A stretch of DNA of 64,000 bases. It comes from a virus. Its lineage: Duplodnaviria; Caudoviricetes. The stretch lies in IMG/VR virus record IMGVR_UViG_3300042483_000388. One strand, given 5' to 3'. A program made the translations under genes and the position numbers. Of the stretch, positions 8,964 through 63,614 are shown in pieces. A model generated the notes under the pieces. The model was not told the DNA's origin. It did no database searches and saw nothing but the letters and a program-made list of their open reading frames with translations. The stretch's first letter is position 1, and each line of letters starts with the position of its first letter.

Positions 8964-9004
8964 TTTAGATTCACTTATTAAAAATAACGATTATTATTTC
9001 ACTA

Positions 9005-9985
9005 ATGAAAGAGATTTTATTTGTATCTGCCCAACCTGATGTTCCCTATTTTATTTGGCAAATTAAACTTTATGTTAACAACTTTATTGATAATGGTATT
9101 GACCCAAATCAAATACACGTTGTTTTAGGTTTAGTTCTTGGTAAAACAGAACCGTCTAAAGGGGCAAAAGAATTGGTTAATTTGGGGATAAATACACACT
9201 TTTTTATTGATAATAGAGTTAAAAAACATTATATCCCAAGTATTAAACCATATTTAATATCAAAATGGATACAATCAAACCCTGATTATGGGAAGATATT
9301 TTTCCTACACGATGCGGACATTATATTTAGGGAACTACCGAAATTTAATCGGTTGTTAAACGATGAGGTAAGTTATTTATCTGATACCATTGGATATATT
9401 GGTTATGATTACATTATGGATTGTTGTAAAAGATATGAATCAAAACACCCAAACTCAGAAAAGGGACAATTAATGTCTGAGATGGTTGAAGTAATTGGGG
9501 TTGATGTTGAAACAATAAAAGAAAACCAAGAAAATTCAGGTGGAGGACAATACCTGATCAAAAATACAACTTGTGAACTTTGGGATAAAATCTATAAAGA
9601 TTCAACCACATTATATGATAAGATGTTAGACTACCAAAAAAGATTCCCAATAAATCCAGGCCAAATACAATTTTGGACAGCAGAAATGTGGTCTCTTTTA
9701 TGGAACCTATGGATGTATGGGTTTAAAACAAAAATAACAAATGAGTTTGAATTTTGTTGGGCAACAGATGATATTAATAAGTACAATACCACACCAATAC
9801 TACATATGGCTGGAGTAACACAAGATATAAAAACTACAAAGTTTTTTAAAGGTGATTATATTAATATAGACCCAATTGAGGAATTAAGAAAAAACCCAAA
9901 CGTTTTTGATTATATAGATTCAAATAGTTCAACAATAAAATATATTGAGAATATGAAATCATATCTCCAAAAATCAAATATTTGA
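9005..9985 (+). CDS. GT-A fold glycosyltransferase, resembling the HPAT/SGT1 (GT95/GT96) type
   Basis: DxD motif FFLHDADIIF; KPYLISKWI; WTAEMWSLLW; PILHMAG. Confidence 0.6.
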   Translation: MKEILFVSAQPDVPYFIWQIKLYVNNFIDNGIDPNQIHVVLGLVLGKTEPSKGAKELVNLGINTHFFIDNRVKKHYIPSIKPYLISKWIQSNPDYGKIFFLHDADIIFRELPKFNRLLNDEVSYLSDTIGYIGYDYIMDCCKRYESKHPNSEKGQLMSEMVEVIGVDVETIKENQENSGGGQYLIKNTTCELWDKIYKDSTTLYDKMLDYQKRFPINPGQIQFWTAEMWSLLWNLWMYGFKTKITNEFEFCWATDDINKYNTTPILHMAGVTQDIKTTKFFKGDYINIDPIEELRKNPNVFDYIDSNSSTIKYIENMKSYLQKSNI

Positions 9986-10001
9986 TTATTTATCTAATAA
10001 G

Positions 10002-12059
10002 ATGGTAGAAAATTGTTACATACTTTATCCTGTTAATGGTAATTCAGAACCAATAGTTTCAAACTATAGTGGTTTAACTGCATATACTTCAGGTTTTGCT
10101 TATATTGAAACTACTGGAATAACAAGTCCAAGTGGTTGTTTTTATGTTTTAAATATTGGTGAGATAGAATGTGTTCCAACAGAAGAAATAACAATTGATA
10201 GTGGGACAACTTGTTCTGGGTTATGTTATTGTTATTTTATAAAAACCCAATCTGAAAATACCGATGTTACATATGTTGATTGCGATAACAATATCGTTGT
10301 TCAAAGTCTAATATCCGGATTAACATATAATCTTTGTAGTAGAATATATCCCCAATTTGATTCGGAATCTAATATACCGTTAAAGGTAACCGACATATGT
10401 GAAAACAATCAATGTCCACCAACATTACCAACGGTAAAACCAACAAACGAATGTGATGTAATAACGTTGTTCCCAATGAAAATACAATGTTTAACACAAC
10501 AACCAACCAGCATATTTTCTTATGATGGAGCCACAACTCTTTTAATAACTGGTGGAACACCACCATATACAGTATTTTGGGAAGTAGGTAGTTATGCTCC
10601 GGCATTAACAAACTTAAGTGTTGGTAGTTATACCGCAACGGTAACGGATTATTATGGGGACTTCACCGAAGTTACGACCTGTGTGTTAACAGCAGAAACA
10701 ATAGTTTATTCTGCAATGTGTTTTGTGGTTTCAGGTATAGTTGAAGAGAATGTTGTTTATATAACATCACAACCACAAGGAGTGAGAAATGGTAAACCTT
10801 ATTACATTTTAACATATGGGGTAACTACTTTAGGGTATGTTATATGGCAACCACAATACGAATATTGGTCATTCTGTCAATCAATGGAATGTCAAAACGG
10901 AACCTTCTATTCTTATTTGTTAGATAATGGCGATTTATACCCATCAGGATCTACTTGGCAAGTTTCGGCCTCAACACTATATCAAATAACGGAATCTTAT
11001 GTCGGGCCTTGTGAGATACCTGTGGTTCCTACCGATTATGGACCATTATGTGTTTCATTAGTTATTAGGAGTAATGAACTTGGATACCTATCACAAGAAC
11101 TACAAATAGAGGTATTACCAACGAATGACCTTAATGGTCAACCAACTTGGACATCTCTTGATAGTCAATATTTCATGTATTGGAATACAGGATCAACACC
11201 AAACCAATGGACATTCACAGGATATCCCGGTACAAATATTAGTTTGGTTAATAATGATCCTTCAGCACCACCATTAAGTAATTGGGTAATTTATGGTACT
11301 GGTGAAGTATTACAAATGACAGTTTTGTCGGGAGAATGTTCAGTAAATCAATTAGTGACTGTTAGTGTGACAAAAAATAACGCTCTTTGTGAAAACGATG
11401 GGAGTATTTCTGTTAGTGCTATTGGAGGAACGGCCCCGTATCAATATTCAATAGATGGGGGAATAACCTATCAAACATCTCCAATATTTTTAAATTTAGC
11501 ACCAGGATATTATGACGTATTTGTTAAGGATTCTAATAATGTTGTAGGTAGTACAACGACAATACAAATTACCTCAACACCATCAACGACATATTTCCTA
11601 ACATTATCGGTAAATACGATAAATGATACATTTGTGGTTACGGCACCGACATTACCGGCAGGTGTTACGATATCATTCAATTTGAATATGACATCAAACT
11701 TTAGTTATTATCCAACAACATTAAGTCCAGCCCCAACATATAATAACATAACAACAATAGATGGTTATGGAGTAATGACACTTTATAATACAACAAGTAG
11801 TGTGATACCATTATCGGGACCTTGTACCGCGGATGGACCAATTAACATAGCACAACAAAACCTACAATACCTTAATAATTTAACAATAGGAAGTAATCAA
11901 ACAATAACAGGATTTACAACAAATCAAATAATAAACGACCCAACAGGATATTGTGAAGATGCGATTCCTAATTACCAATTATATATCAGTAATGCCGTAA
12001 TAAATAATTGTAAGTGTTGTAAAATAAAATTTATAAACCCTGTTCCAACAAAAAATTAA
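10002..12059 (+). CDS. Cys-rich tail fibre-like protein with SprB-type repeats
   Basis: GGTPPYTVFW..NLSVGSYTATVTD and GGTAPYQYSIDGG...NLAPGYYDVFVKDS; TATTTAT upstream. Confidence 0.6.
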   Translation: MVENCYILYPVNGNSEPIVSNYSGLTAYTSGFAYIETTGITSPSGCFYVLNIGEIECVPTEEITIDSGTTCSGLCYCYFIKTQSENTDVTYVDCDNNIVVQSLISGLTYNLCSRIYPQFDSESNIPLKVTDICENNQCPPTLPTVKPTNECDVITLFPMKIQCLTQQPTSIFSYDGATTLLITGGTPPYTVFWEVGSYAPALTNLSVGSYTATVTDYYGDFTEVTTCVLTAETIVYSAMCFVVSGIVEENVVYITSQPQGVRNGKPYYILTYGVTTLGYVIWQPQYEYWSFCQSMECQNGTFYSYLLDNGDLYPSGSTWQVSASTLYQITESYVGPCEIPVVPTDYGPLCVSLVIRSNELGYLSQELQIEVLPTNDLNGQPTWTSLDSQYFMYWNTGSTPNQWTFTGYPGTNISLVNNDPSAPPLSNWVIYGTGEVLQMTVLSGECSVNQLVTVSVTKNNALCENDGSISVSAIGGTAPYQYSIDGGITYQTSPIFLNLAPGYYDVFVKDSNNVVGSTTTIQITSTPSTTYFLTLSVNTINDTFVVTAPTLPAGVTISFNLNMTSNFSYYPTTLSPAPTYNNITTIDGYGVMTLYNTTSSVIPLSGPCTADGPINIAQQNLQYLNNLTIGSNQTITGFTTNQIINDPTGYCEDAIPNYQLYISNAVINNCKCCKIKFINPVPTKN

Positions 12060-12082
12060 ATAAAACAATATTTATCATTTAA

Positions 12083-16786: not shown

Positions 16787-16861
16787 ATCAGTAATAAATA
16801 TAAAAGAAACCAAAAGTTTGTGTAGTTGATGTATTGAAACTTTATGATTATATTATAGGAG

Positions 16862-24197: not shown

Positions 24198-24228
24198 TAA
24201 TTAAACAAATAATAATATCTTTGTTATT

Positions 24229-24762: not shown

Positions 24763-24859
24763 ATTATGGAGTATAAGAATATATTAAATTTTTTATTAAA
24801 ATAATTTATATATAACCCAATTTTAATACTATATTTGTAAAACAATTAAAAACACACAT

Positions 24860-25390
24860 ATGAATTATTTACTTTTTACATACTACGACAACACGGTAGT
24901 AAACCCCGAAGAAAAAACAGATGAAATTGGTGGACAAATATCCAAAGCGATGACATCAAAAGAGGTTAAATTTATGTTTGGTGATAGACATTCGATCTTT
25001 CATTTTGCATCAGACCTATCCTTATCTGAAATGGGAGAATTTATGAATATCGTTTCGGATGAAATTACGGGATTTGAGTTTTTCCTAACACAAAAAACAA
25101 AAAATAACTTTTCAAACTTCCCAGAAGACAACTTAAATCACCTTTTGTCGTTAAGGAAGACCACAAAGAAAAAAAATGCACCAGTTCCACCAAAAAAACT
25201 CAAGTTTGATTTTAATCCTACTAACACAGAATTTTTTGACATTGCGGAGATGATCAAATTTATTTTACCGAATAATGTTTGTAACATGACATTGGATGAG
25301 TTATTAGATAAAATTGGTGAAGATGGGATTGAGTCACTATCAGAACAAGAAAGAAATAAATTAGATGAATATTCAAAATCACTTAACTAA
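24860..25390 (+). CDS. Hypothetical protein with a C-terminal DUF6576-like helical motif
   Basis: LDELLDKIGEDGIESLSEQERNKL. Confidence 0.55.
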   Translation: MNYLLFTYYDNTVVNPEEKTDEIGGQISKAMTSKEVKFMFGDRHSIFHFASDLSLSEMGEFMNIVSDEITGFEFFLTQKTKNNFSNFPEDNLNHLLSLRKTTKKKNAPVPPKKLKFDFNPTNTEFFDIAEMIKFILPNNVCNMTLDELLDKIGEDGIESLSEQERNKLDEYSKSLN

Positions 25391-25394: not shown

Positions 25395-26195
25395 ATGAAA
25401 GACAGAAATACAGGGGCACCAATCAATCAGGAAGAAATTTACCACTACCTTAAGGATATTAGAAAAATTAAGGTAATGACCGCAGAGCGTGAGCGAGATT
25501 TAGCGAAACGTATGAAATCTGACGATCTTACAGTCATTGAAAAACACGACATTGAACAAGAACTACTTGTTGGTAATCTTCGTTTTGTTATTACTGTGGC
25601 AAAACAATATCAAAATCAAGGATTAGACTTGTCGGATCTTATTGCTGAAGGTAATTTAGGGTTACTTAAAGCGATTAAAAACTTTGATTGGCACAAAGAC
25701 CTAAGATTTATATCTTACGCTGTCTGGTGGATTAAACAATCAGTTATTCAATCGCTTAATGATAACTCAAGGACTATTCGACTACCAGTTAATGTGGTTC
25801 AGGATTTACACAGGGCAAAAAAAGAAGTTGAGAAAACAGGTGTTAAATTATCCGATAAATTCTCAAATCTACCATCTATCATTGATTTGGATATGAATAT
25901 CAATGAAGAAGGAGACACTCTTATTGATATGATTGAAAATAAAGATGCTGAGGCTCCTGATGCAGGTTTTCACACAAAGGATATTCTTAAGGATAAGTTG
26001 TTTTCATTACTGAATGTGCTTGACGAAAGAGAGAAAGTTATCGTTGGTGATTACTTCGGACTTACAGGGACACCTCGTACTCTAGAAGATATTGGGTCGG
26101 ATTTTGGTCTAACAAAAGAGAGAGTTCGCCAAATTAAAGAGAAAGCACTTCGTAGATTACGAAATGATTGTTCCGAATTATTTGACTATTTATAA
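25395..26195 (+). CDS. Sigma-70 family RNA polymerase sigma factor (Bacteroidetes RpoD-like, no region 1.1)
   Basis: GNLRFVITVAKQY, DLIAEGNLGL, RFISYAVWWIKQS, RTLEDIG..FGLTKERVRQIKEKALRRLR. Confidence 0.95.
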   Translation: MKDRNTGAPINQEEIYHYLKDIRKIKVMTAERERDLAKRMKSDDLTVIEKHDIEQELLVGNLRFVITVAKQYQNQGLDLSDLIAEGNLGLLKAIKNFDWHKDLRFISYAVWWIKQSVIQSLNDNSRTIRLPVNVVQDLHRAKKEVEKTGVKLSDKFSNLPSIIDLDMNINEEGDTLIDMIENKDAEAPDAGFHTKDILKDKLFSLLNVLDEREKVIVGDYFGLTGTPRTLEDIGSDFGLTKERVRQIKEKALRRLRNDCSELFDYL

Positions 26196-26790: not shown

Positions 26791-26834
26791 ATCATTAAAT
26801 ACTTCTAATACTATTTATATATAAAACAATTTAA

Positions 26835-43563: not shown

Positions 43564-43570
43564 AAAACAC

Positions 43571-43590: not shown

Positions 43591-43595
43591 ATGTT

Positions 43596-43937: not shown

Positions 43938-43938
43938 A

Positions 43939-44536: not shown

Positions 44537-44537
44537 T

Positions 44538-44570
44538 AAAAAACCCCTCCGTTAAGAGGGGGTATTTTTT
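44538..44570. terminator. Bidirectional intrinsic terminator
   Basis: A-run, CCCCTC-cgttaa-GAGGGG, T-run, between convergent genes. Confidence 0.85.
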
Positions 44571-45264
44571 ATATAATAATCACGTCCTTTAAACGATCCT
44601 GAACCATGAATGGTTTATCTTTTGTTTGATCAAAAACATCATGGAAAAACTCGTAATCGGCAAATCTTTCATTAAAGGACTCCAAGTCCATATCAAACAC
44701 ATCTAAAACTAAACTCTCAATTTTATCGTTATCGATATGTGAATTACAAGATACTTTAATTTTGCGATCCCCATCTTCATTTTCTTCATTAGTATAGTAT
44801 AAATAAACTTGATCTACATTAAGTAATGAATACATATGGTTAAACATATATTGTGAGTAATAAACAATTGACCTACCGCACCCTAAACTATGTCCATATG
44901 GAAACTCTGAACTACAAGTTAGTTCAGAAATGGGTTCGTCTTCAACGGTGTATAGATCCTTATGTGTTGAAATCCATTTATTATCAAAATTCTTAATATC
45001 TTGATCGTATTTGATAATATCAATTACGTTTAAATTTTTTCTGTTAACTTCTGTTAACACATCATCGAACCAATTTGAAAAATCAGTTTTTAGTTCATTT
45101 AAATCCAACACTTCTTTACTTGTTGTCATACCATTAACAACAATAAATGTTTCACAATCTGTTACTTGGATTATTGTGTTGTCCTTCTTATCAAATTTAG
45201 AAAGGATGTAGTCGGCAAATAGATTCACAAAGTATCTTCGTGTGTTTTTTTCTAATTTTCTCAT
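44569..45264 (-). CDS. Degenerate S-adenosylmethionine synthetase (MetK)-like protein
   Basis: Segments align by eye to the MetK N-terminal, central and extreme C-terminal regions, but GHPDK, GAGDQG and GGGAFSGKD are absent. Confidence 0.5.
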   Translation of the reverse strand: MRKLEKNTRRYFVNLFADYILSKFDKKDNTIIQVTDCETFIVVNGMTTSKEVLDLNELKTDFSNWFDDVLTEVNRKNLNVIDIIKYDQDIKNFDNKWISTHKDLYTVEDEPISELTCSSEFPYGHSLGCGRSIVYYSQYMFNHMYSLLNVDQVYLYYTNEENEDGDRKIKVSCNSHIDNDKIESLVLDVFDMDLESFNERFADYEFFHDVFDQTKDKPFMVQDRLKDVIII

Positions 45265-45313
45265 ATTTTTTATTTTTATAATTAATATGAGTTTTATTTG
45301 GATTTATAAATAG

Positions 45314-46444
45314 TTAGATATAATCAACAAACATTTCGTTTATGTATTTTTGAGTTGTAGACCAATCTGGATAATCAGGAGTGCTAAAATCTATACAATC
45401 AAAATCATCATCGTAGATTAGTTGTTTCATCAAAGTAGTATAACTACCAAAATAATCTAAATATGAATCACTATAAGATCGACCTTTTTGTATTTCTAAA
45501 AATGCTGTAATGTTTCCAACAAAATCTCTAATTTTAATATAATTTAAGTATGTGGTTACTTTTTTACCATCCGATTTGGTAGTTTCTTTTGGTACTTCAT
45601 CAATTTTTCCTTCAAAGTATTCATTTAAACCATCATATACTAATTCATATATTTCATTTTCATATGCAGAATTATAAGCGTTCCAATAAATATTTTTTAA
45701 TTCTTGACCTAACTCACTTAAATCATTTTCACATAGTTCGTTTATTGCGTCGGAATCTTTAATTAATTCATTTAAGTCTTCAGCTTGAATTTTAAAATAA
45801 CCTTCAGTTCCCTGTTCTTCAGATAAACTTTCAAAAAAATCAGAGCTATAATCCTCTAAAGATAATTCAACATTACCAATTTCTTTAAAAATAGCATCTT
45901 TTAAATGAATGGTATTTTTTTCATTTAAATCGTCAATAACTTCAGATGGTTTTGTATCATTATCAAAATACCAATCATTACCTAAACCATCTTCACTAAA
46001 TACTCGTTTTGCAACATCTTCAGGAGAACTATCACGACGAGAGGAACCGCAGAAAAAATCAGCTAACTCATCCCTATCATTACCTAAATATAGGTAGAAC
46101 CCATCAGGTCTAATTTCAACATCACTTAAAAGGTTGCTTGTAATATATTTAACGGTATTTTCATAGTTATATTCTAAACCATGTAGTAAATAATTGTTTT
46201 GAAACTCTTCAGGAACAGAATTATAGTCTAAATTAGCCATAATACCATTCTCAACCAAATAATCAAACAATTCATTACTAAAATCATCAGAAGGTATAGA
46301 TCCTAAATCAAGGTCATCTAAAAGATTGTATTTTTTAATGAATTTAAAAAAATTTATTAATGTATTGAAGTATGGTTTTATTTCATTTTCATAATCACCA
46401 TCATTGAATAATTCTATTAAATTTTTTACCCTCTCTAAACTCAT
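45314..46444 (-). CDS. Acidic hypothetical protein (MSLERVKNLIE)
   Basis: Long ORF; TATTTAT 5 nt upstream. Confidence 0.7.
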   Translation of the reverse strand: MSLERVKNLIELFNDGDYENEIKPYFNTLINFFKFIKKYNLLDDLDLGSIPSDDFSNELFDYLVENGIMANLDYNSVPEEFQNNYLLHGLEYNYENTVKYITSNLLSDVEIRPDGFYLYLGNDRDELADFFCGSSRRDSSPEDVAKRVFSEDGLGNDWYFDNDTKPSEVIDDLNEKNTIHLKDAIFKEIGNVELSLEDYSSDFFESLSEEQGTEGYFKIQAEDLNELIKDSDAINELCENDLSELGQELKNIYWNAYNSAYENEIYELVYDGLNEYFEGKIDEVPKETTKSDGKKVTTYLNYIKIRDFVGNITAFLEIQKGRSYSDSYLDYFGSYTTLMKQLIYDDDFDCIDFSTPDYPDWSTTQKYINEMFVDYI

Positions 46445-46521
46445 ATTTTATAAATATCTATTAAACAAAAAAAAAAGGCGTTCTAAAACAGAACACCTTA
46501 ATTTCGATGATACACAAAATA

Positions 46522-46680
46522 TTATTTTCTATAATATTTATTAATAATTTTTTTCACAGATTCTTGCACATTTGAACCATTTGGTGGTGATTGAGGTTGT
46601 GCTTGAGGTTGAGCTTGAGGTTGTGCTTGAGGTTGTTGAGCTTGTTGGTTTTGTTTGTTTTTACATCCACATCCGGCCAT
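46522..46680 (-). CDS. Small MxGCGC protein with a QPQA repeat
   Basis: MAGCGCKNKQNQQAQQPQAQPQAQ...; TATTTAT at 46713-46719 (-). Confidence 0.65.
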   Translation of the reverse strand: MAGCGCKNKQNQQAQQPQAQPQAQPQAQPQSPPNGSNVQESVKKIINKYYRK

Positions 46681-46786
46681 AACGATTATTTTTAATAAGT
46701 TTATTTTTATATATAAATATATCCATAATAAGATTACTTTAAGTTTTTTAAATGTCAATTATTAGTTATTGTTATATTTATAATAT

Positions 46787-48001
46787 ATGTCACTAAAAAC
46801 ATTTTTTAAAAATTACCTAATAGAACAAGATGAGAATCTTGTTAGTGTTACTCCCGAACAATATGTTGAAACATTGGGAGATGTTGGTGGCATTGCAGAT
46901 AGAATTGCTAAACTAAAACAATATAGGGGTAAAGGTATTGTTATTACTGGACCACTAAGTGTTACTAACTACAAAAACATTGGGCCACTAACAGGTGTTG
47001 TTAGAGTAATGGGTAGATTAGATATTTCTCATACCAATATTTCAAATCTTAATGGAATTACAGTCGATGGTTATGTTAGTGATTATGGATCTTCTATGTG
47101 GAAGATTAAAATGCAACAAAAATTAAATGAAAAACTTTCAGACTTGGATGAAAAAAGAAGAGAAGATGAATGGAATGTTGAAAACCAAGATGATGAATCT
47201 GAAAGAACTGAAGCCGTATACAAATATTTAAATCAACATGGTGATGTGGATATGGTTGAAGACGACGAAGGAAATGAAGTTCCTGAAGATAAGTATTATA
47301 TCAATCCTAATGGAAGGGCAACCTATGGTTACGGAAAACAATATGAATGGTTAGGAGGTGGTAATGGGTTTAATCCCAATGAATATGATGTTTATACTGA
47401 AGATGAGGCAGATAGTGCCGCAAGACAAGCTGTTGAAAATTTAGTTGATGATTCAGGAATGGATGCGTTTAGTTCGTGGGCATTCAATGATGCTTTAAAT
47501 GATAGACAATGGTATGATTGGTTATATGATTACTACGATGATTATATTAGATCATCTCCTGAGGATTTTGATATACCTTTAGAACTATCAAATCAACAAA
47601 TGACACAAGTTCAACAACTACAATCAAACATAGATTCACTTAATAAAAGATTAGAAAGTGAAGATTTACCTGATGAAAAATATGAAGAAATTGAAATAAA
47701 AATTGAAGGGTTGGAAGAAATAATTCAAGAAATCAATGATGACCCACAAGGTGAATATGATGTAAGTTCAATTGAAAATGAAATTACAGGTAGAGTTGAT
47801 GAATACAAAGACGACATTTACGGGTTTATTGATCATCATGGTTATGATAAAGACTTTATCATGGATTTTATTGATTTAGATAAACTAACGGAAACGGTAG
47901 TAAGTTCTGACGGATATGGTAGTATGTTAAATTCTTACGATGGTGATTATGATACTTTTAATATAAATGGAACTGAGTATTACGTAATGAGGGTCTCTTA
48001 G
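46787..48001 (+). CDS. Acidic hypothetical protein with a short solenoid-like repeat (MSLKTFFKNYLIEQ)
   Basis: LIEQ motif; ITGPLSV...VMGRLDISHTNISNL; TATTTAT 5 nt upstream. Confidence 0.7.
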   Translation: MSLKTFFKNYLIEQDENLVSVTPEQYVETLGDVGGIADRIAKLKQYRGKGIVITGPLSVTNYKNIGPLTGVVRVMGRLDISHTNISNLNGITVDGYVSDYGSSMWKIKMQQKLNEKLSDLDEKRREDEWNVENQDDESERTEAVYKYLNQHGDVDMVEDDEGNEVPEDKYYINPNGRATYGYGKQYEWLGGGNGFNPNEYDVYTEDEADSAARQAVENLVDDSGMDAFSSWAFNDALNDRQWYDWLYDYYDDYIRSSPEDFDIPLELSNQQMTQVQQLQSNIDSLNKRLESEDLPDEKYEEIEIKIEGLEEIIQEINDDPQGEYDVSSIENEITGRVDEYKDDIYGFIDHHGYDKDFIMDFIDLDKLTETVVSSDGYGSMLNSYDGDYDTFNINGTEYYVMRVS

Positions 48002-48041
48002 GGCTTTATTTGTTTTATAATTTACATTATTTTTATTTTTA

Positions 48042-48827
48042 ATGACACGTAGAAAAAAAATACAATTTTTAATGAACACCGATTGGATGTTTGAAAGACC
48101 AATTGACCGAGAACACAAAGAATATAGATTACTATCCTTTTTCCAAAAAATGGGAGAAAAATTGGATAACCTTGAGTTATATCCAGGGTTCATTGAATTA
48201 TCATTACATTTAATGAACGTCCAATCTCTAATTAAAGACAAAAATATTGTTTATACCGATAAGAAATTTGCCGGAATAGATGATGAGTTATTGGTTAAAG
48301 ATTTAAAGTTAAAACAATTACCAGATATGACGGAGGGAGAAACAAAAGAATTCATTGAAATTCTAAATTTCTCAGCACCAAGAATAATTGAATACTTTAA
48401 TATTGCAAAGTCTGTTTGGACAATAGTGTTTGATTCTATTGGTATGAAAATAAAGAAGAACCAAAATAACATTCTAAACCCGAAAGGTTTCTTTTATTAT
48501 ATGGATGAAAAAACAAAAAAATATTATGTTTGGCAATACATTCTTAAAAAAGAAGCCAAATCTACTACAGAAAAAATGTCTAACATCAATTTAATTTATA
48601 ATGATGAATTAAGTGGTTTAACCCTAACAAAAATTATATCCAAATTTTCCACATTTGATCCTTCATATATTAAGGTGTCACCGGTTTTTCATATGATATC
48701 CTCAGGGGAGTTTCCAATTAACGAAACGTTATATCCAATGTTTAAAAGACGAATAGCCGCACACATATCACAAACAAAAGTATTATCTCAATATAATGAG
48801 AACAAAGAAAACTATAAAATGAAATAA
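48042..48827 (+). CDS. Hypothetical protein
   Basis: 261-aa ORF. Confidence 0.65.
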   Translation: MTRRKKIQFLMNTDWMFERPIDREHKEYRLLSFFQKMGEKLDNLELYPGFIELSLHLMNVQSLIKDKNIVYTDKKFAGIDDELLVKDLKLKQLPDMTEGETKEFIEILNFSAPRIIEYFNIAKSVWTIVFDSIGMKIKKNQNNILNPKGFFYYMDEKTKKYYVWQYILKKEAKSTTEKMSNINLIYNDELSGLTLTKIISKFSTFDPSYIKVSPVFHMISSGEFPINETLYPMFKRRIAAHISQTKVLSQYNENKENYKMK

Positions 48828-48866
48828 AATTTTGACAAAGAAGATTTAATTGTTTAAATTTTTAGT

Positions 48867-48995
48867 ATGATAGAAATAGATGTATTTAAAATAATTAAAG
48901 ACTTAATTGCGGAATACCCAAATGATACAGATTTGGGAAAAAAAGTTAGAGATCTAGTTTATGGAATTAAAAAAATAAAACAAAATGGGATTTAA
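48867..48995 (+). CDS. Small YPND-type phage protein, 42 aa (not in the ORF track)
   Basis: MIEIDVFKIIKDLIAEYPNDTDLGKKVRDL...; TTGACA-N17-TAAATT ends 6 nt upstream. Confidence 0.6.
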   Translation: MIEIDVFKIIKDLIAEYPNDTDLGKKVRDLVYGIKKIKQNGI

Positions 48996-49167
48996 TAAAA
49001 GAACAATTTCTAAAAAACATATCCTTAATAATGTGGATAACATAATGAATTATTTAGACGCTGATGCGGTATTCACCACCGACGAATTCTCACTCAACGT
49101 TTATAGAATGTTCAATCAAGGAAAATCAGAAGAAGAAATAGTAGAATACATAAATAATAATATATGA
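48985..49167 (+). CDS. Small hypothetical protein
   Basis: Coupled ORF (MGFNKRTI). Confidence 0.6.
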   Translation: MGFNKRTISKKHILNNVDNIMNYLDADAVFTTDEFSLNVYRMFNQGKSEEEIVEYINNNI

Positions 49168-50294
49168 AATTTTTTTTAGAATACGTGTGGCTTGACGGAT
49201 ATAAACCAGAGCCAAATCTTAGAAGTAAAGTTAAGATTGTTGAATACGAATCGATTAAGACCTTAAAAATTGAAGATTTTCCTGTATGGAATTTTGATGG
49301 GTCATCAACTAATCAAGCAGAGACAGGTAAGTCCGATTGTTTATTAAAACCGGTTAGACTTTATAAATCGGAATCTTTTCCATTGGAAAGAAGCGTTCTT
49401 TATGTGTTTTGTGAGGTATTAAATCCTGATGGAACACCTCACGAGTCAAATAAAAGATCAAGTATTAGTGAAGGTTTTGAAGATCTTTGGTTTGGTTTTG
49501 AACAAGAGTATTTTATTCGTGAAGAAGTTAATGGAAGAATTTTAGGTCACAATAGAAAGATTCTAAAAGGTCAAGGTGAATATTACTGTGGTGTGGGTCA
49601 TAATGTTGTTGGTCGTGAGTTTGTTGAACAACATACAAATATGTGTTTAGATTATGGTATTGGTATTACCGGAACAAACGCTGAGGTTGCTTTAGGTCAG
49701 TGGGAATACCAAGTTTTTTCTAAAGGTAAATTAAAAGGTGGTGACGATCTTTGGATGACTAGATACTTCCTTCATAAAATTGCCGAGAAATATGAATACC
49801 AAATAGAACTTCACCCAAAACCAGTACTACATAATGAATGGAATGGATCAGGTCTTCACACAAACTTTTCAACAGACATAATGAGATTAGATGGTAACGA
49901 AGAATACTTCATGGCATTATTCAACGCATTTGAATCAAGACACGAAGACCATATTAAGGCTTATGGGTCAAACAATCACTTACGATTGACCGGTGAATAT
50001 GAAACTCAAGCAATTGATAAATTTAGTTGGGGTGTATCTGATCGTGGAGCGTCAATTAGAGTTCCTCAGGACACAGCAAAAGAATGGAAAGGTTATATTG
50101 AAGATAGAAGACCAGGTTCAAATGCCGATCCTTACAAGATTATTCGTGAGATTGTTAAATCACTTGATGTCACACAACAAATATATGATACAAAACATAT
50201 GATGACTTCATTTGTTGATATGAATGGTCTTACCGGGAAATACGGCACAATGTCTAACGATGAGTTATTAAAAGAATATAGAGAAGAAGAATGA
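49164..50294 (+). CDS. glnII: Glutamine synthetase type II (GSII), auxiliary metabolic gene
   Basis: LEYVWLDG, WNFDGSST, WFGFEQEY, NAEVALGQWEYQ, WNGSGLHTNFS, RGASIRVP, EDRRPGSNADPY. Confidence 0.93.
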   Translation: MKFFLEYVWLDGYKPEPNLRSKVKIVEYESIKTLKIEDFPVWNFDGSSTNQAETGKSDCLLKPVRLYKSESFPLERSVLYVFCEVLNPDGTPHESNKRSSISEGFEDLWFGFEQEYFIREEVNGRILGHNRKILKGQGEYYCGVGHNVVGREFVEQHTNMCLDYGIGITGTNAEVALGQWEYQVFSKGKLKGGDDLWMTRYFLHKIAEKYEYQIELHPKPVLHNEWNGSGLHTNFSTDIMRLDGNEEYFMALFNAFESRHEDHIKAYGSNNHLRLTGEYETQAIDKFSWGVSDRGASIRVPQDTAKEWKGYIEDRRPGSNADPYKIIREIVKSLDVTQQIYDTKHMMTSFVDMNGLTGKYGTMSNDELLKEYREEE

Positions 50295-51905: not shown

Positions 51906-51988
51906 ACCTATAAATATATGAGAAAATAATTGTCAAATAATTTTTTTGATAAGGAAAGTTTTATTATATTTGTAGAAATAAGACACAT

Positions 51989-52823: not shown

Positions 52824-53843
52824 ATGAAAAATAAATTATTTTTAGAGGAAGGAGAAATTTCAAGAATTCTTAATATGCACAAAAGGGCTATTAATGAAGA
52901 ACTTAATATTAATGGTAGAGAAGTTGGAAACAAAAGGGGTATATTAAATGAAATAACTGAAGATGAAAAGTTAACTGCAGATGGTGTCGGTACAAAAATT
53001 CAGGCATTATATAAATTTTGTAATGTTGGTATCCCCGGATTAGCTCATGTCAAATGTGCTACTGATATGAATGCTCAACTAAAGTTATTAAAAACCAAAG
53101 AACAATTTGATATTGCCGGCAAGAAAACAAGTTACTGGTATACGGGTGACTGGGCCAGAAGTTTAGGAGACTTTTTAAAACAACTAATGAAAAATGGGGT
53201 TGTTTCTCAATTATCCAAAACAGTTGGTACGCCGCAAGGTGAAATGGCTATTAAAATTGCACAAATTTATGCCTCAACATTTAAAGTTGCGGGAGGAACC
53301 TTAACTTTTAAAAAAGTTAATGACGCCAATGGTAATCCAACTTTAGATCCTGAGTCTTTTAAATTATCTTGGGGAACCCCGGCACCTATAGTAGGAGGAG
53401 GTGCAGCACCTGTAGTAACTACCAATAATGCCGCTTGTGATAAGGAGGGATTTAAACTGTCAACAAACAATAGTTGGTACTTCTCAACAAAAGAAACTTA
53501 TGATGCTGCCCCTGCGGATAAACGTAGGGCTTGGACATGTAGTTTGGATAAAAATGTAATATTGTATTGGGTGGATAGAGTTTGGCATGATACTGTTTAT
53601 ATTAAAACTAAAGGAAAAAGTGGTGGTAGTGGAACTGGTGGTGGAACTGGAGGAGGTGGTAGAACCGGAACCAGAAAAAAATACACCTTTGATGTTGCGG
53701 CAGTAAATAAATTAATAGATGAAAAATGTTCTAAGGATAAAAAACCAAATGTGGGTAGTGGAGGTATTGATCTTGATGTTACTGGTACACAAACACAAAC
53801 ACCAATACCTAATATGCCAAAAGATATACTTGGATCCTTATAA
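52824..53843 (+). CDS. Duplicated cassette copy 1, large ORF (MKNKLFLEEG...) with a divergent annexin-like segment
   Basis: Shares the N-terminal ~25 aa and C-terminal ~50 aa with the 54210 ORF; start placed after TATTTAT at 52800. Confidence 0.7.
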   Translation: MKNKLFLEEGEISRILNMHKRAINEELNINGREVGNKRGILNEITEDEKLTADGVGTKIQALYKFCNVGIPGLAHVKCATDMNAQLKLLKTKEQFDIAGKKTSYWYTGDWARSLGDFLKQLMKNGVVSQLSKTVGTPQGEMAIKIAQIYASTFKVAGGTLTFKKVNDANGNPTLDPESFKLSWGTPAPIVGGGAAPVVTTNNAACDKEGFKLSTNNSWYFSTKETYDAAPADKRRAWTCSLDKNVILYWVDRVWHDTVYIKTKGKSGGSGTGGGTGGGGRTGTRKKYTFDVAAVNKLIDEKCSKDKKPNVGSGGIDLDVTGTQTQTPIPNMPKDILGSL

Positions 53844-53863
53844 AACTAATAAAAAAAATAGAT

Positions 53864-54079
53864 ATGAGCAAAATTAAAATAACGCAAAGACAAATGATAA
53901 GGATCCAAAAGTTTCTTAATGAGAGCATTATTATGGAGCAAACCTCAGACGAGATTATCAATATTCAAAACAGGTTAAACTCATGTTTTAATGCTGGATT
54001 AAAAGCTGATGGTAAAATGGGACCAAAAACCGCATCGGCTATTGAAACATATACTGGTTATGATGTTTCTGTTTCATAA
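53864..54079 (+). CDS. Duplicated cassette copy 1, 71-aa protein with a peptidoglycan-binding (PG_binding_1-like) motif
   Basis: IQNRLN..GLKADGKMGPKTASAI. Confidence 0.65.
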   Translation: MSKIKITQRQMIRIQKFLNESIIMEQTSDEIINIQNRLNSCFNAGLKADGKMGPKTASAIETYTGYDVSVS

Positions 54080-54096
54080 GTTTAAAAAAAAATAAT

Positions 54097-54121
54097 AAGG
54101 GAGATCAATCTCCCTTTTTTT
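54097..54121 (+). terminator. Intrinsic terminator, copy 1
   Basis: AAGGGAGAT-ca-ATCTCCCTT followed by a T run; identical to 55538. Confidence 0.85.
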
Positions 54122-54209
54122 ATGCGGTTTTTTTTGTGATATGGAAAAATACTACTATATTATTATTCTTTTTTGGTTTATCATATATTTATATAATAAA
54201 AATTATAAT

Positions 54210-55286
54210 ATGAAAAATAAATTATTTTTAGAGGAAGGGGAAATTTCAAGAATTCTTAATATGCATAAAAGGGCAATCCGAGAAGAACTTAATGTTAATG
54301 GTGATGAAGTTGAGAACAATCAAGTTCAAATGGATGAGGAATTAAGTGAAGATGGTCAAGTACAAAAAACCTTGGCCGGAGCAGCTATTGGATCCGCAGC
54401 AGGTTCTTTTATTCCTGGTGTTGGTACTGTTGCCGGAGCAATAATTGGAGGATCCATAGGTTATTTTGGTAGTTTGATGAATAGTTATAGTTTAGAGGGG
54501 GCTAAAAAAATATTACAAGCTTGTTCGGCTAAAAAAGCTGAAATGGGAGAACCAACAATGAATTCAGCGACTTTAGCTAAGATTGCTGACGATATTAACT
54601 ACGGTGTTGAAGGTAGTGGAACATATGAAAAGACTATTGCCTCAGGTTTGAGACAGACCAAATATATGCCCAATCTATGTGCTATGGCGGCAGTTTATAA
54701 ACAGAGACAAGGTGAAAGTTTATTTGATGCGATTGATGGGGACATAGATTCTGATTATCAATGGAAAACGTATGTGTTTTTGCCTTTATTAGATGTTTAT
54801 AATAATAGTGTGGAATTGGGTAAAAAAATGTTAAAACAACAACCACAACAACAAAAAACTGGAGGAGGAGGAGCACCAACATCAGGTGAGGTGTACCAAA
54901 AGTGTCACACAGCAATAATTGACCCTATGGTTAAAAAATATGGATATACTTACGTAACTTTAGATGTGTTTAATCAAGCTCCGGCCGATAAGAAAACATA
55001 TAAATGGTGTCCTGCAGGGAAGAGTAACGTATACTTCACTAAAGGATGGAGTGGTGGTAGTACTGAAACTGCACCTACTGGTACTGAAACTCGTGTTTAT
55101 AGTGGCGGAGGTGGAGGAGGTGGAAAAACATACACCTTTGATGTTGCAGCAGTAAATAAATTAATAGATGAAAAATGTTCTAAGGATGGAAAACCTGGAG
55201 GAACAGGTGTTAATCTTGATGCTACTGGCACACCAACACCAACACCAATACCTAATATGCCAAAAGACGTATTTGACATCACATAA
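54210..55286 (+). CDS. Duplicated cassette copy 2, large ORF with a glycine zipper and an annexin-like repeat
   Basis: GAAIGSAAGSFIPGVGTVAGAIIGG; GVEGSGTYEKTI...YKQRQGESLFDAIDGDI. Confidence 0.7.
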   Translation: MKNKLFLEEGEISRILNMHKRAIREELNVNGDEVENNQVQMDEELSEDGQVQKTLAGAAIGSAAGSFIPGVGTVAGAIIGGSIGYFGSLMNSYSLEGAKKILQACSAKKAEMGEPTMNSATLAKIADDINYGVEGSGTYEKTIASGLRQTKYMPNLCAMAAVYKQRQGESLFDAIDGDIDSDYQWKTYVFLPLLDVYNNSVELGKKMLKQQPQQQKTGGGGAPTSGEVYQKCHTAIIDPMVKKYGYTYVTLDVFNQAPADKKTYKWCPAGKSNVYFTKGWSGGSTETAPTGTETRVYSGGGGGGGKTYTFDVAAVNKLIDEKCSKDGKPGGTGVNLDATGTPTPTPIPNMPKDVFDIT

Positions 55287-55305
55287 AACTAATAAAAAAA
55301 TATAT

Positions 55306-55521
55306 ATGAGCAAAATTAAAATAACGCAAAGACAAATGATAAGGATCCAAAAGTTCCTTAATGAAAGTATTATTATGGAACAAACCTCAGATGAGATTAC
55401 CAATATCCAAAACAGGTTAAATACTTGTTTTAATGCTGGATTAAAAGCTGATGGTAAAATGGGACCAAAAACCGCATCGGCTATTGAAACATATACTGGT
55501 TATGATGTTTCTGTTTCATAA
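55306..55521 (+). CDS. Duplicated cassette copy 2, 71-aa PG-binding-like protein
   Basis: 69/71 aa identical to 53864..54079. Confidence 0.7.
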   Translation: MSKIKITQRQMIRIQKFLNESIIMEQTSDEITNIQNRLNTCFNAGLKADGKMGPKTASAIETYTGYDVSVS

Positions 55522-55537
55522 GTTTAAAAAAAATAAT

Positions 55538-55562
55538 AAGGGAGATCAATCTCCCTTTTTTT
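55538..55562 (+). terminator. Intrinsic terminator, copy 2
   Basis: Identical to 54097-54121. Confidence 0.85.
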
Positions 55563-55590
55563 ATGCGGTTTTTTTTCTTATATTTGTGAT

Positions 55591-56637: not shown

Positions 56638-56663
56638 ATCGTAATTACAATATATTTATTGGT

Positions 56664-57914: not shown

Positions 57915-58073
57915 TAATCTAAAGTCATAGTTTGCTCAATACATGGATTTATTAACCACTAATCTCAATTGTATTCGTATTTATTAGTGAGCTCAACCTG
58001 CCCGTGGAATATGGGGGTTTCCTAAAAAGATTCTTCAAGAGAGTAAATAATTTTAATTTTATTTATTTTTACT

Positions 58074-60815
58074 ATGAAGAATATATTGCTTGGACTTTTT
58101 GTCCTGTTTTCTACTTTCACATTTTCACAATCATGTCTCCACACTATTCGACGAACTGATACCTTTGGTGATGGTTGGAATGGAGGAACTGTAGCTGTTT
58201 CCGTTAATGGAGTAACTGTTTTATCCGGATTATCTTGTGTTGGAGCCGGTCCTACTTCTTCAACATTTAGTGCTGCAGTAGGATCAACAATTAGAGTGTA
58301 CCGAACAGCTGCCGGACTTTACCCTACAGAAATGCGTATACAAGTTCTCAGTGGTGCTGGTGCCATTATACTCAATACTGTTCAACCACTTGCTGGATCT
58401 GCAATTTCAGGAGGGTGGACAGTATTAGGAAGTTGTGCGGCAGCAGGACCTTGTACCAATACCTCATCATATGGTTCAGCTACTGCTCCATCTACACCAA
58501 CAACAGTAGTTATTAGTACATGTCAATTTCAGTCAGAGTACAGTACAATTTATTCTTGCATAGCAGGTCGAACATATCAATCGGCTTACAATTTAGGGGG
58601 ATTCATAACGGTTAGATCGGGAACATACAATGGTGCTGTAGTTGCTAGTGGAAACAGCCCACTAAATTGGGTGTGCCCAACCTCAGGAACATATTTTGTC
58701 CATTATAATACAAATAATACTTGTGGGACAGCATCTTCTTGTGGGACATCTTCTATTTCTTGTTTAACTTGTTTGGCGCCAACTGCCCCACCAAATGATT
58801 TAGTGTGTAATTCAACATCTATTACTTGTGGTCAAACACTATCAGGAACTACTATAGATGCAACCAACACTGGAACGGGTGAAGGTGGATTTTGTTCTGT
58901 AAGTCAAACACAACCCGGTGTTTGGTATGTTATTCCAGGAAACGGACAAATTATGACGGCAAATCTTTGTGCGACGGCATGGGATAGTAAAATGTCTGTA
59001 TTTAGTGGCCCTAATTGCTCTACATTGTCATGTGTTGGAGGAAATGATGATTTTGGGCCCGCTTGTGCTAGTTCGTCCGCCTCATTTTCATGGTCATCGG
59101 TAGTTGGAACAAATTACTATATATTAGTTCATGGGTATAGTGCAAGTAGTACTTTTTCTATTAACCTAACTTGTATGTCTCCCCCACCACCAAATCCTAC
59201 ATCAATATCTGCAACACAAAATACTATTTGTAATGGATCATCTACCACCCTAACCGCAAATGGTGCTGTGGGTGTGGTTTATTGGTATGTAGGAGGTTGT
59301 GCTTCCACTTTCGTATCAACCGGAAATTCCATTTCGGTAAGTCCTGCATCAACCACCACATACTACGCAAGAAATCTAAACGGAGGTCTTTTTAGTGGTG
59401 GGTGTGCTTCAACAACAATAACGGTTAATCCCAATCCCAATGTAACCATAAGTTCGGTAACCAATACAATATGTGATGGATCAAACACCCAATTAATATC
59501 TAACATTAGTGGTGTGTCATCCCCAGGAAATCTTGTTGTGACCATATCCAGTGGTGGATTCTTAGATGAAAGTTCTTGGACTTTAACAAATAGTTTAGGT
59601 GCTGTAATTGGTTCAGGTGGACCTTATGGTTTAGGGTCAACAAATATAATTCCAATCGGTTCATCGGCAAATGGTCCATACACACTTAATGTGGAAACTC
59701 AAGGAATATGGAATGACAACACGGCAAATTATTTGGTAACTTGTAACGGAACAACGGTCCTAAGTGGAAGTTTAGTTGGTGGGCAGAGCATAACACAATC
59801 AATCTCATCTTGTGGGTCTTCTCCTGGTGTAACATATCTATGGACACCTTCAAACGGACTTACAAATGCAAGTGCCCCAAGTCCATTTGCTTCTCCTACG
59901 ACTACACAGACCTATCAGTTAACCGTAACTGCAAATGGGTGTTCAGTATCAACCTCCACAACAATAACCGTAAATCCTTCTGTTGGTTTTGTGTCTACAA
60001 TATCTGGTAATAATACCATAATTGCCGGAACACAAGGAAGTTATTCAATAACACCGGTAGCAAACTCAAATTATCAATGGGCATACACCGAGTCCGTAAC
60101 TGTGCCACTATGGATAAACGTTCCGAACTCTAACTCACCATCAATAACATTTACTTGGCCACAGACAACAACTAATGGTTCGGCTAGAGTTATTATCAGT
60201 AATGCTTATGGGTGTGGAACTCAAACCAGATTTTTTAATATTGTTACTAATGGTGCTCTTCCTGTTGAACTATTAAGTTTTGTTGGGGTTTGTGATAACA
60301 ATTTAATATCATTAACTTGGAAAACGGCAAGTGAACATAATTCTGATTATTTTGAAGTTCTTAAATCAAGAGATGGTTTAAATTGGTCAATATTAACCAC
60401 TTTAAATTCGGCTGGTAATTCAACCCAAGAATTAACTTATACCACAAAAGATGAAAACGCCATTGACGGGGATAACTATTATAAACTTCTTCAATATGAT
60501 ATTGATGGACAATCAAAAGAGTATGGGCCAATAAATGTAATGTGTAATGAAAACAAAAAAGGTTACTTTTCAATATTTCCTAATCCAAGTTCAGGATCTT
60601 TCCAAGTTGTGTTAAACAATAAAAATATGGTTGGTGATGGAAAATTAATTATTAAAGACACAAAAGGATCTGAAATACTTAATAAAGAAATTAATATTGT
60701 TTCAGGGATTAATTTATATAATATTGGAGATTTAAATATGGTGGATGGAATTTATTATGTTCAGGTAAGTAACGGAAATTTTTCAACACAAGTAATAAAA
60801 CAAATAATAAAATAA
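58074..60815 (+). CDS. Secreted multi-Ig/Cys-rich protein with a T9SS (Por) C-terminal sorting domain
   Basis: Signal peptide MKNILLGLFVLFSTFTFS-Q; PPNDLVCN motif; LPVELLSF...TWKTASEHNSDYF; FSIFPNPSSG...GIYYVQV...KQIIK. Confidence 0.85.
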   Translation: MKNILLGLFVLFSTFTFSQSCLHTIRRTDTFGDGWNGGTVAVSVNGVTVLSGLSCVGAGPTSSTFSAAVGSTIRVYRTAAGLYPTEMRIQVLSGAGAIILNTVQPLAGSAISGGWTVLGSCAAAGPCTNTSSYGSATAPSTPTTVVISTCQFQSEYSTIYSCIAGRTYQSAYNLGGFITVRSGTYNGAVVASGNSPLNWVCPTSGTYFVHYNTNNTCGTASSCGTSSISCLTCLAPTAPPNDLVCNSTSITCGQTLSGTTIDATNTGTGEGGFCSVSQTQPGVWYVIPGNGQIMTANLCATAWDSKMSVFSGPNCSTLSCVGGNDDFGPACASSSASFSWSSVVGTNYYILVHGYSASSTFSINLTCMSPPPPNPTSISATQNTICNGSSTTLTANGAVGVVYWYVGGCASTFVSTGNSISVSPASTTTYYARNLNGGLFSGGCASTTITVNPNPNVTISSVTNTICDGSNTQLISNISGVSSPGNLVVTISSGGFLDESSWTLTNSLGAVIGSGGPYGLGSTNIIPIGSSANGPYTLNVETQGIWNDNTANYLVTCNGTTVLSGSLVGGQSITQSISSCGSSPGVTYLWTPSNGLTNASAPSPFASPTTTQTYQLTVTANGCSVSTSTTITVNPSVGFVSTISGNNTIIAGTQGSYSITPVANSNYQWAYTESVTVPLWINVPNSNSPSITFTWPQTTTNGSARVIISNAYGCGTQTRFFNIVTNGALPVELLSFVGVCDNNLISLTWKTASEHNSDYFEVLKSRDGLNWSILTTLNSAGNSTQELTYTTKDENAIDGDNYYKLLQYDIDGQSKEYGPINVMCNENKKGYFSIFPNPSSGSFQVVLNNKNMVGDGKLIIKDTKGSEILNKEINIVSGINLYNIGDLNMVDGIYYVQVSNGNFSTQVIKQIIK

Positions 60816-62286: not shown

Positions 62287-62334
62287 TAATAGAAGTAGTA
62301 AACATTATTAGAAAATAATACGTATATTTGTGGA

Positions 62335-62511: not shown

Positions 62512-62525
62512 AATAATAAATTGTT

Positions 62526-62840
62526 ATGAAAACAAGAGAAACAAAATTTGGAACATATATAGAAATGGAAACAGAAACAAGCACAAAATTAACTGGTGAT
62601 AAGATTACGGTATTTGTGGAAAGATTGAAAAAAATTGGAATTGAAGTTAAACTATCAGGAAACTTTCCTTGGGTATATATTACTGAAATCTGTGGTAAAA
62701 GAGTAACTGAAAAGTTTGAAGGGAATCACGGGTTTACATTAATATTTTTACCAGGTAGAAACGATAGCCCACCATCTGATTTTACTGATATTACAGAGAT
62801 ATTTAAACTAATAAGAAAATATACAAATGAAACTAATTAA
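62526..62840 (+). CDS. Hypothetical protein
   Basis: Operon ORF (GNFPWVYI). Confidence 0.65.
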   Translation: MKTRETKFGTYIEMETETSTKLTGDKITVFVERLKKIGIEVKLSGNFPWVYITEICGKRVTEKFEGNHGFTLIFLPGRNDSPPSDFTDITEIFKLIRKYTNETN

Positions 62841-63069
62841 ATTAACATCATATAGTGACAACGGTCCCATCTACATTAATATAAATGAAATCGGACATTT
62901 CAACGAAGGAGAAGGATACAAAATGAATTCTAATGGTGTGGGACATAAAATGGAAAAATATACACAAGTAGGTGTAACAACACATAATGATGGTGGTTTT
63001 AAAGTTAAAGAAACACCATCAGAAATAATTGATAAAATTTGGAACCTAATTAATAAACGAATAATATGA
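62827..63069 (+). CDS. Small hypothetical protein (FlbD-like beta pattern)
   Basis: MKLIKLT...IYININEIGHF...VKETPSEII. Confidence 0.55.
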   Translation: MKLIKLTSYSDNGPIYININEIGHFNEGEGYKMNSNGVGHKMEKYTQVGVTTHNDGGFKVKETPSEIIDKIWNLINKRII

Positions 63070-63590
63070 ATTTAGACAAACTAACAATGGACGAACTTAT
63101 TTCATTAAGAAATGAAATTCAAGGAAAAATACATTCCTATGAAGATGGGTATTTGTATATCTGTTCTGTTCGTCAGTTTGGTAGTGTGTGGGAAGAAAAA
63201 CCAAGTAGTTTATATGGTTTAAAAGAACTTTGTGATTCATATTACGGTGACAATGGTATTGTTGATGTTTATACTAACAACCCAAATTTAGAATTTCCTG
63301 AAATGGAGTTTGAAAACTATGGTGACGTTATGTTTATTAAATCAGAAGATGATTACCGTGACTGGGTTAAATACAACAAAGAAAAAAACTTTATTGATGA
63401 TGTAACACAACGACTTGATGAGTGGGATGAAAGTAAAAATTCACCATTTAAATATCGCCCTTCTTTTGCGCCAATTTGGACAAGAGAAGATCTTAATGAA
63501 TGGGTTACAGAGTTTGAAAGTAAGACATGGGATTTTACCGAACCAAAATCTATGAAGATAAATTATTCCGAAGAAGATGGTGAAGATTAA
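63066..63590 (+). CDS. Hypothetical protein
   Basis: Coupled ORF. Confidence 0.65.
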   Translation: MNLDKLTMDELISLRNEIQGKIHSYEDGYLYICSVRQFGSVWEEKPSSLYGLKELCDSYYGDNGIVDVYTNNPNLEFPEMEFENYGDVMFIKSEDDYRDWVKYNKEKNFIDDVTQRLDEWDESKNSPFKYRPSFAPIWTREDLNEWVTEFESKTWDFTEPKSMKINYSEEDGED

Positions 63591-63614
63591 AAAAATAATT
63601 AATATATTTGTAAT

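Follow-up and report, generated by a model that had tools for sequence, protein, structure and literature searches.

Three statistically separable promoter classes and a possible sigma factor cascade in a phage with a probable Bacteroidota host

Which forms of RNA polymerase could read a phage genome written in three different promoter grammars, one of them close to the canonical TTGACA-17-TATAAT pair, is the question raised by IMG/VR virus record IMGVR_UViG_3300042483_000388 (Duplodnaviria; Caudoviricetes), of which a stretch of 64,000 nucleotides (nt), hereafter the window, was analysed. A previous sequence-only reading had distinguished TAnnTTTG boxes (class I), sigma70-like pairs with a 17-nt spacer (class II) and TATTTAT boxes (class III), and had suggested an early, middle and late cascade in which a Bacteroidetes-type sigma factor encoded at 25395-26195 may have switched its specificity to class II or class III. 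The three grammars are indeed statistically separable, the strict motif of each exceeding its frequency in shuffled sequence (P<0.001); the enrichment upstream of genes against shuffled sequence, which had been set beforehand as the test, was found also for the all-A/T TATTTAT. The motifs, their spacing rules and their conservation, the lack of enrichment of classes II and III in a candidate host genus and the presence of two sigma genes are described below; on this basis it is judged slightly more probable than its negation that class II is read by the phage sigma of the window and class III by a second, gp55-like sigma, and that class I is left to the host.

The window (31% G+C, about 85 open reading frames (ORFs), 6% non-coding) has no close match among deposited phages (INPHARED megablast); two relatives served as independent test sets, namely G001, a complete syntenic genome of 304,365 bp with 65-80% nucleotide identity to the window, and the more distant G002 (291,867 bp), the three sequences together comprising 820 ORFs. 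Enrichment was measured against dinucleotide shuffles of the upstream regions, and 920 kb of Flavobacterium chromosome (33-34% G+C, 772 ORFs) were used as host control. A Bacteroidota host is supported by several lines of evidence: phage genes that encode SprB repeats and sorting domains for type IX secretion, the closest cellular relatives of the window sigma, a phage fragment binned with a Flavobacterium metagenome-assembled genome (MAG), and the literature on bS21-encoding freshwater Bacteroidetes phages of up to 331 kbp, found in lake water and with predicted Flavobacteriia hosts (Chen et al. 2022, PMC9723584), to whose lineage, or to a neighbouring one, the present phage probably belongs (lake water, about 300 kb). 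A contig scan with the window sigma, limited to two patterns, gave as best matches phage contigs binned into MAGs.

The five sigma70-like pairs quoted in the sequence-only reading are all present on the plus strand with a spacer of exactly 17 nt: TTGATG-17-TATATT (16826-16854), the class II-like TTTACA-17-TATAAT (32285-32313), TTGACT-17-TATATT (36583-36611), TTGATA-17-TATACT (39881-39909) and TTGACA-17-TATATT (42259-42287); four of them have one or two mismatches to the consensus over its 12 positions, and the fifth has three. Similarity to the consensus is by itself uninformative in this genome; indeed, the 695 sigma70 matches found in the window with up to three mismatches correspond to the chance level, and a generic promoter scan of 26-46 kb gave 115 matches against 110.5 +/- 11 expected. 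Since loose matching in A+T-rich DNA behaves as chance, the signal is to be found only in strict, position-aware tests: TTGA[CT]N-17-TATANT occurs in 4 of 84 upstream regions in the window against 0.047 in shuffled sequence (P<0.001), other spacings giving 0-1, and within 40 nt of the starts of the 820 ORFs the same pair of boxes occurs 18 times at 17 nt and 0-2 times at each other spacing from 11 to 24 nt. The Flavobacterium control contains a single site at 17 nt and no spacing peak, so class II looks phage-specific.

Conservation of class II is best seen upstream of the primase gene, where the promoter at 16826 ends 7 nt before the ATG (16862): TTGAnn-17-TATAnT, placed 6-7 nt before the ATG, is found in 47 of the 51 distinct upstream variants present among 81 sequences (the window and 80 relatives), with an information content near maximal in the two boxes and low in the spacer. 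The D12/Dam-class methyltransferase gene (ATG 36618, 6 nt after the promoter at 36583) is preceded, in 80 contigs, by several unrelated-looking families of upstream sequence, nearly all of which carry TTGAnn, 17 nt and a TA-box. Genes behind class II promoters include those for primase, Dam-class methylase, an N6/N4 methylase and gp32. Of the gene labels previously attached to the five sites, those of primase and Dam-class methyltransferase hold, while those of glycosyltransferase and Hc1-like protein find no support: the genes following 32285 (start 32332, 18 nt after the box), 39881 (ATG 39916, 6 nt after the box; 79 aa) and 42259 (ATG 42294, 6 nt after the box; 94 aa) have no Pfam or PHROG match and resemble neither. 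A further block, AAA(A/G)(C/T)TTGTG(T/A)AG (16790-16826), adjoins the primase -35 box on its upstream side and is kept in most relatives; it overlaps the start of a divergent small ORF (16813-16568) and may be either coding or regulatory.

Class III is the most abundant of the three, with 204 sites per 820 ORFs, that is about a quarter of all genes. In the window 12 of the 43 upstream regions contain TATTTAT, where shuffles predict 2.6 (P<0.001), neither its reverse complement nor six other A/T 7-mers being enriched in the same regions; in G001 it ranks first among upstream 7-mers counted de novo (82 regions against 6.4 expected). Sharp peaks appear in its distance to the start codon, 46 sites lying at 4-5 nt and 37 at 14-15 nt; the profile of the reverse complement is flat in the three genomes. 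The consensus can be written (A/G)TATTTAT(A/T), a purine preceding the box in most sites; no -35 element was detected over the 204 sites, the TTG histogram being flat and the upstream columns unconserved. TATTTAT is kept at 11 of the 11 window sites whose gene has a homologue in G001, in flanks that have diverged. In the Flavobacterium control the counts are 30 sense and 48 antisense, that is no enrichment, and class III thus also looks phage-specific. The genes behind it are mostly unannotatable.

Class I, by contrast, has the features of a host promoter. In Bacteroidota, promoters of the primary factor sigmaA (sigma-ABfr) carry TTTG at -33 and TAnnTTTG at -7 (PMC6847099 and its references), and the phage class resembles them both in sequence and in geometry; the box is itself enriched before Flavobacterium genes, with 203 sense and 91 antisense sites. 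In the window, TAT[AC]TTTG occurs in 6 of 43 upstream regions against 0.22 expected from shuffles (P<0.001), a -33 TTTG accompanying only one or two of the TAnnTTTG sites; G001 has 35 TAnnTTTG sites upstream of genes, with a distance from TTG to TA that is most often 20 nt, in 11 sites, or 19 nt, in 4. The -33 box is much clearer in the phage than in Flavobacterium: among sites within 100 nt of a start, TTG lies 16-17 nt upstream of TAnnTTTG in 29 of 107 phage sites against 17 of 219 in the control, and in 25 of 29 class I sites a T precedes this TTG. The three classes seldom share one gene: 173 genes have class III only, 62 class I only, 13 class II only and 10 are mixed.

The window sigma (25395-26195, plus strand; Pfam PF00140, PF04542 and PF04545 above cut-offs) is primary-sigma-like, with regions 1.2, 2 and 4; the ORF opens at 25365, and as most homologues have 266 aa the start is probably at 25395. 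Its description as a Bacteroidetes-type factor in the sequence-only reading is borne out: it is 45-50% identical to Bacteroidota sigmas over regions 1.2-3 and about 34% identical to enterobacterial RpoD, its size (266-276 aa, compared with about 285 aa) and its lack of region 1.1 are those of the Bacteroidota sigmaA (sigma-ABfr) type, and region 2.4 (WWIKQSVIQSL in the phage, WWIRQSILQAL in the host, WWIRQAITRSI in E. coli) carries the Bacteroidota substitutions S/I/Q in place of the A/T/R of E. coli. In region 4.2 (KERVRQ) the residues contacting the -35 box are kept except for one Arg-to-Lys change, while about 25 residues of region 3.1, a helix-turn-helix present in Bacteroidota and E. coli sigmas, are missing; both the Lys at the position of Arg584 of E. 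coli sigma70 and the loss in region 3.1 are invariant in nine aligned sequences (the window, four relatives and four metagenomic homologues). The greatest difference between the window sigma and the host sigma lies in region 1.2. In E. coli sigma70 this region contacts the non-template base at -5, and the divergence would fit, as a guess from sequence, a relaxed need for G-5. The factor has at least 8000 metagenomic homologues, those listed (120) being all at least 80% identical, and is present in 44 of 45 related contigs, a frequency that makes its co-occurrence with class II uninformative.

The sigma gene lies behind a class I promoter in the window, in G001 and in G002, which fits early synthesis of a factor destined for a later class. 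In the window this promoter is represented by the -7 box TATATTTG (24830-24837, plus strand), 22 nt before the first gene of the sigma operon (24860-25390, plus strand), and at the same place both relatives have a full TTG-16-TAnnTTTG promoter. That first gene encodes 176 aa with a DUF6576 C-terminus (Pfam E 3.9e-11), has the same orientation as the sigma gene and overlaps the sigma ORF; a homologue precedes the sigma gene in G001, and ORFs of similar size are found there in G002. Its product could be a partner or a regulator of the sigma factor.

A second candidate sigma, of 248 aa, is encoded by the relatives. It matches phrog_234 in five of the five relatives searched (E 1.5e-4 to 6e-3); queried directly, T4 gp55 finds it in G001 (E 0.0045) and gives no match in G002. 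A profile built from five sequences reached an hhalign probability of 6% and no PDB match; a profile of 66 sequences aligned to T4 gp55 with 57% probability (E 1e-4, 113 columns) and matched sigma factors and gp55 in the PDB. The AlphaFold model has a predicted local distance difference test score (pLDDT) of 90, aligns to sigma factors over almost its full length, and has sigma factors as all of its top 50 Foldseek matches. In cultured phages the protein has two remote matches only. No recognisable promoter stands directly before the gene, which closes a long glycosyltransferase operon.

These elements can be arranged into a tentative sequence of events. Host sigmaA would read class I, with TTTG at -33, 16-17 nt from hexamer to hexamer and TAnnTTTG at -7, and would thereby express small accessory genes and the operon of the phage sigmaA-like factor, which, being driven by class I, would be made early. 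The host core polymerase with this factor is the most likely reader of class II, which stands before genes of DNA metabolism; class III would be the late class, most likely read by the gp55-like sigma encoded outside the window. The pairing follows from the presence of two phage sigmas and two phage-specific classes, the -35-bearing class II being matched with the sigma whose region 4.2 is conserved, and the single box with the gp55-like protein. Of the two specificities previously proposed for the window sigma, class II is thus the favoured one, and class III appears weaker, because the relatives have a gp55-like sigma and class III has no -35 element. The assignment of sigmas to classes and the early, middle and late order are drawn by analogy with T4 and SPO1. 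The more detailed proposal, in which a copy of a host-type sigma was retuned to TTGA(C/T)N-17-TATANT and works beside a gp55-like sigma whose late box was itself retuned, with leaderless mRNAs that may be linked to bS21, is plausible, at a probability that falls somewhat short of even.

Several observations weigh against these assignments. The gp55-like protein, a putative late sigma, is recognised by weak sequence scores and in relatives, its gene lying outside the window; the host-like region 2.4 retained by the window sigma means that nothing in the sequence of this factor demonstrates a changed -10 specificity; the Flavobacterium chromosome represents a candidate host genus and not a proven host. 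The only RNA found, from two lake-water metatranscriptome runs (two studies), consists of short contigs falling on 30000-49999 and several of its genes, most of them 90-95% identical, which derive from relatives and show no transcript starts or ends; these runs cover a small share of 36300-38200, a query with 36000-45999 matched no RNA library, and the RNA constitutes evidence in neither direction. Finally, the boundary between classes I and II is not everywhere sharp: several methylase variants are hybrids joining TTGAnn-17 to a full TAnnTTTG, a class II-like promoter (TTTACA) precedes 32332 in the window where the G001 orthologue has a class I box, and in G002 the difference in the -35 box described below is not significant. 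Such hybrids and swaps would allow a single holoenzyme with compensating boxes, and in any case indicate that the two classes are interchangeable in evolution and may overlap in function.

The relatives' sequences are, as such, present in RNA libraries; libraries of this kind may also contain DNA.

The alternative that classes I and II are one host-sigmaA class, in which both place TTG at -35 to -33 and TA at -12/-11 and the lack of G-5 in the -7 box is made good by a strong -35 box, has to be weighed on the same data, and is considered unlikely. Besides the hybrids, the class swaps at orthologous genes and the non-significant split in G002, it can draw on geometry, as TTG followed by 20 nt and TA is the modal arrangement of TAnnTTTG promoters in G001 and equals that of TTGACA-17-TATAAT, and on the retention by Bacteroidota sigmaA of the region 4.2 residues RERVRQ. 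What compensation leaves unexplained is the composition of the -35 region: an A stands at the fourth position of the -35 box in 17 of the 22 class II-like sites and in 4 of the 29 sites of class I (Fisher p 7.7e-6), and in G001 alone in 10 of 11 against 1 of 15 (p 2e-5), the figures for G002 being 3 of 7 and 3 of 13; in full TAnnTTTG sites the base after TTTG is T or G; and the T that precedes TTG in class I is lost in class II, where it occurs in 5 of 15 sites, that is without preference. The stricter spacing, 17 nt only in class II as compared with 16 or 17 nt in class I, is likewise left unexplained, and class II is nearly absent before the 772 Flavobacterium genes. The class II -10 box is TATANT without G at -5, while mapped promoters of Flavobacterium johnsoniae nearly always have this G (PMC6847099). 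In the one primase variant that carries TATCTTTG, the -33 box is TTTGGA, so that both boxes switch together. A single host-sigmaA continuum of classes I and II was in fact entertained as a reading of the data, and was demoted to a rival by the tests on the -35 base, the spacer and the host genome.

Recognition of class II by host sigmaA could also be achieved by a phage activator bound to the TTGAnn box in the manner of MotA/AsiA, the phage sigma having some other task. T4-like phages indeed employ sigma appropriation for their replication gene set, and class II precedes replication genes here. The box, however, is located at the canonical -35 and separated by exactly 17 nt, as predicted for binding by sigma region 4, while the MotA box is at -30, and a phage sigma with an intact region 4.2 is carried by 44 of 45 related contigs; this explanation is accordingly very unlikely. 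Much the same low probability is given to the possibility that class III is read by the window sigmaA-like factor and that the late sigma is something other than the gp55-like protein. In its favour, this protein resembles gp55 weakly, and the phage sigma lacks region 3.1 and differs from the host factor in region 1.2; on the other side, class III has no -35 box, yet region 4.2 of the window sigma is invariant among the relatives, and a second protein with a sigma fold aligning to T4 gp55 is found in five of five relatives. That an A+T-rich genome produced these motifs by chance, as the frequency of loose sigma70 matches, no higher than in shuffles, might suggest, is so improbable as to be practically negligible, being rejected by the shuffle, orientation, spacing, orthologue and host-genome controls.

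The position of the boxes relative to the start codon suggests a further property of the favoured scheme. In F. johnsoniae the first transcribed base lies 4-5 nt downstream of G-5, and leaders longer than 10 nt make up 87% (PMC6847099). Of the phage TAnnTTTG sites, 23% have their end at 3-6 nt from the start codon, compared with 5.5% of the Flavobacterium sites, a placement beside the ATG that is fourfold commoner; four of the five class II -10 boxes of the window stop 6-7 nt short of the ATG, and the fifth stops 18 nt short of the start; and the start codon is ATG in 84 of the 90 ORFs with a box ending 4-5 nt upstream. As many boxes, in all three classes, end 4-7 nt before the ATG, many mRNAs would be leaderless, which implies transcripts of all three classes starting at or beside the start codon. 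This predicted geometry offers a testable link to translation without Shine-Dalgarno sequences.

Two phage systems lend themselves to comparison. In T4, early genes are read with host sigma70, middle genes through MotA-AsiA and late genes by gp55-gp33-gp45 on TATAAATA. The present phage is similar in that its small accessory genes have host-type promoters and its replication genes a class of their own, and in having a class with a single box in the -10 region and no -35 element, together with a candidate gp55-like sigma in its relatives. It differs in that a canonical -35/-10 pair with a 17-nt spacer takes the place of the MotA box in its middle-type class, in that the phage encodes a full sigmaA-like factor, and in the size of the putative late sigma (248 aa, compared with 185 aa for T4 gp55). 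Class III itself, TATTTAT(A/T) on the coding strand, is distinct from TATAAATA: the 8-mer is the reverse complement of TATAAATA, from which it departs at two positions in its centre. In the Bacillus phage SPO1 the sigma cascade proceeds from gp28 to gp33/gp34; as would be the case here, successive phage sigmas redirect the host core polymerase and the first is made from host-type promoters. Phage and host are unrelated to those of SPO1, one of the sigmas considered here derives from the primary sigma of the host phylum, and the promoters presumed to be read by it are close to the general bacterial consensus, which that phylum does not use. The scheme would thus be a variant of the known theme of phage sigma cascades, in a phylum for which no earlier description was found in a literature search; the search returned no paper linking TATTTAT to a phage late promoter or a phage sigma to Bacteroidota promoters, and the words promoter, sigma and motif have zero occurrences in PMC9723584.

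The promoter rules of Bacteroidota phages are almost unknown, and the lineage is abundant in lakes; the three box definitions permit the temporal class of each gene to be predicted across hundreds of uncultured genomes. If the proposed reading is true, class II and the small phage sigma would represent a natural orthogonal expression switch for Flavobacteria and Bacteroides, and only a few changes would set the promoter code of Bacteroidota apart from that of bacteria in general.

The class III boxes of the window lie on both strands. On the plus strand TATTTAT is found at 2366-2372 (before 2396), 9987-9993 (before 10002), 12069-12075 (before 12083, 832 aa), 26812-26818 (before 26835), 31040-31046 (before 31061), 37476-37482 (before 37497), 40468-40474 (before 40488), 46775-46781 (5 nt before ATG 46787), 56653-56659 (4 nt before ATG 56664) and 58060-58066 (7 nt before 58074); on the minus strand it is found at 45306-45312 (before 45264-44569), 46450-46456 (5 nt before ATG 46444) and 51910-51916 (4 nt before ATG 51905). 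Among the genes so preceded, 10002-12059 encodes a 685-aa protein with an SprB repeat, known from Bacteroidota gliding-motility adhesins, and 58074-60815 encodes 913 aa in which an Ig-like CHU_C-associated domain is recognised and, weakly, a C-terminal sorting domain of type IX secretion. The latter segment has 40.6% G+C, compared with about 31% in the phage, and may therefore be a recent acquisition from the host; in G002 a class II promoter precedes the gene of a similar CHU_C/SprB protein. The end of G001 (301496-304365) repeats its beginning (399-3453), which fits a complete genome that is terminally redundant or circularly permuted.

Further class I boxes are TATCTTTG at 24216-24223 (plus strand), 5 nt before ATG 24229 and thus of leaderless type; TATCTTTG at 36521-36528 (minus strand), with TTG 19 nt upstream, before a small ORF (36518-36351); and, on the plus strand, TATATTTG at 51965-51972, before 51989, whose G001 orthologue has TTG-17-TATCTTTG, at 55579-55586, 4 nt before ATG 55591, with a terminator directly upstream and kept in G001, and at 62323-62330, 4 nt before ATG 62335. 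The site at 55579 belongs to a direct repeat of about 345 nt (53800-54142 and 55243-55583; 240-nt core 95% identical) which flanks the gene 54141-55286. Both copies contain a terminator and a small ORF; the second closes with TATATTTG, at 4 nt from an ATG, while in the first the box has been lost, and the pair looks like the result of a cassette insertion or a duplication.

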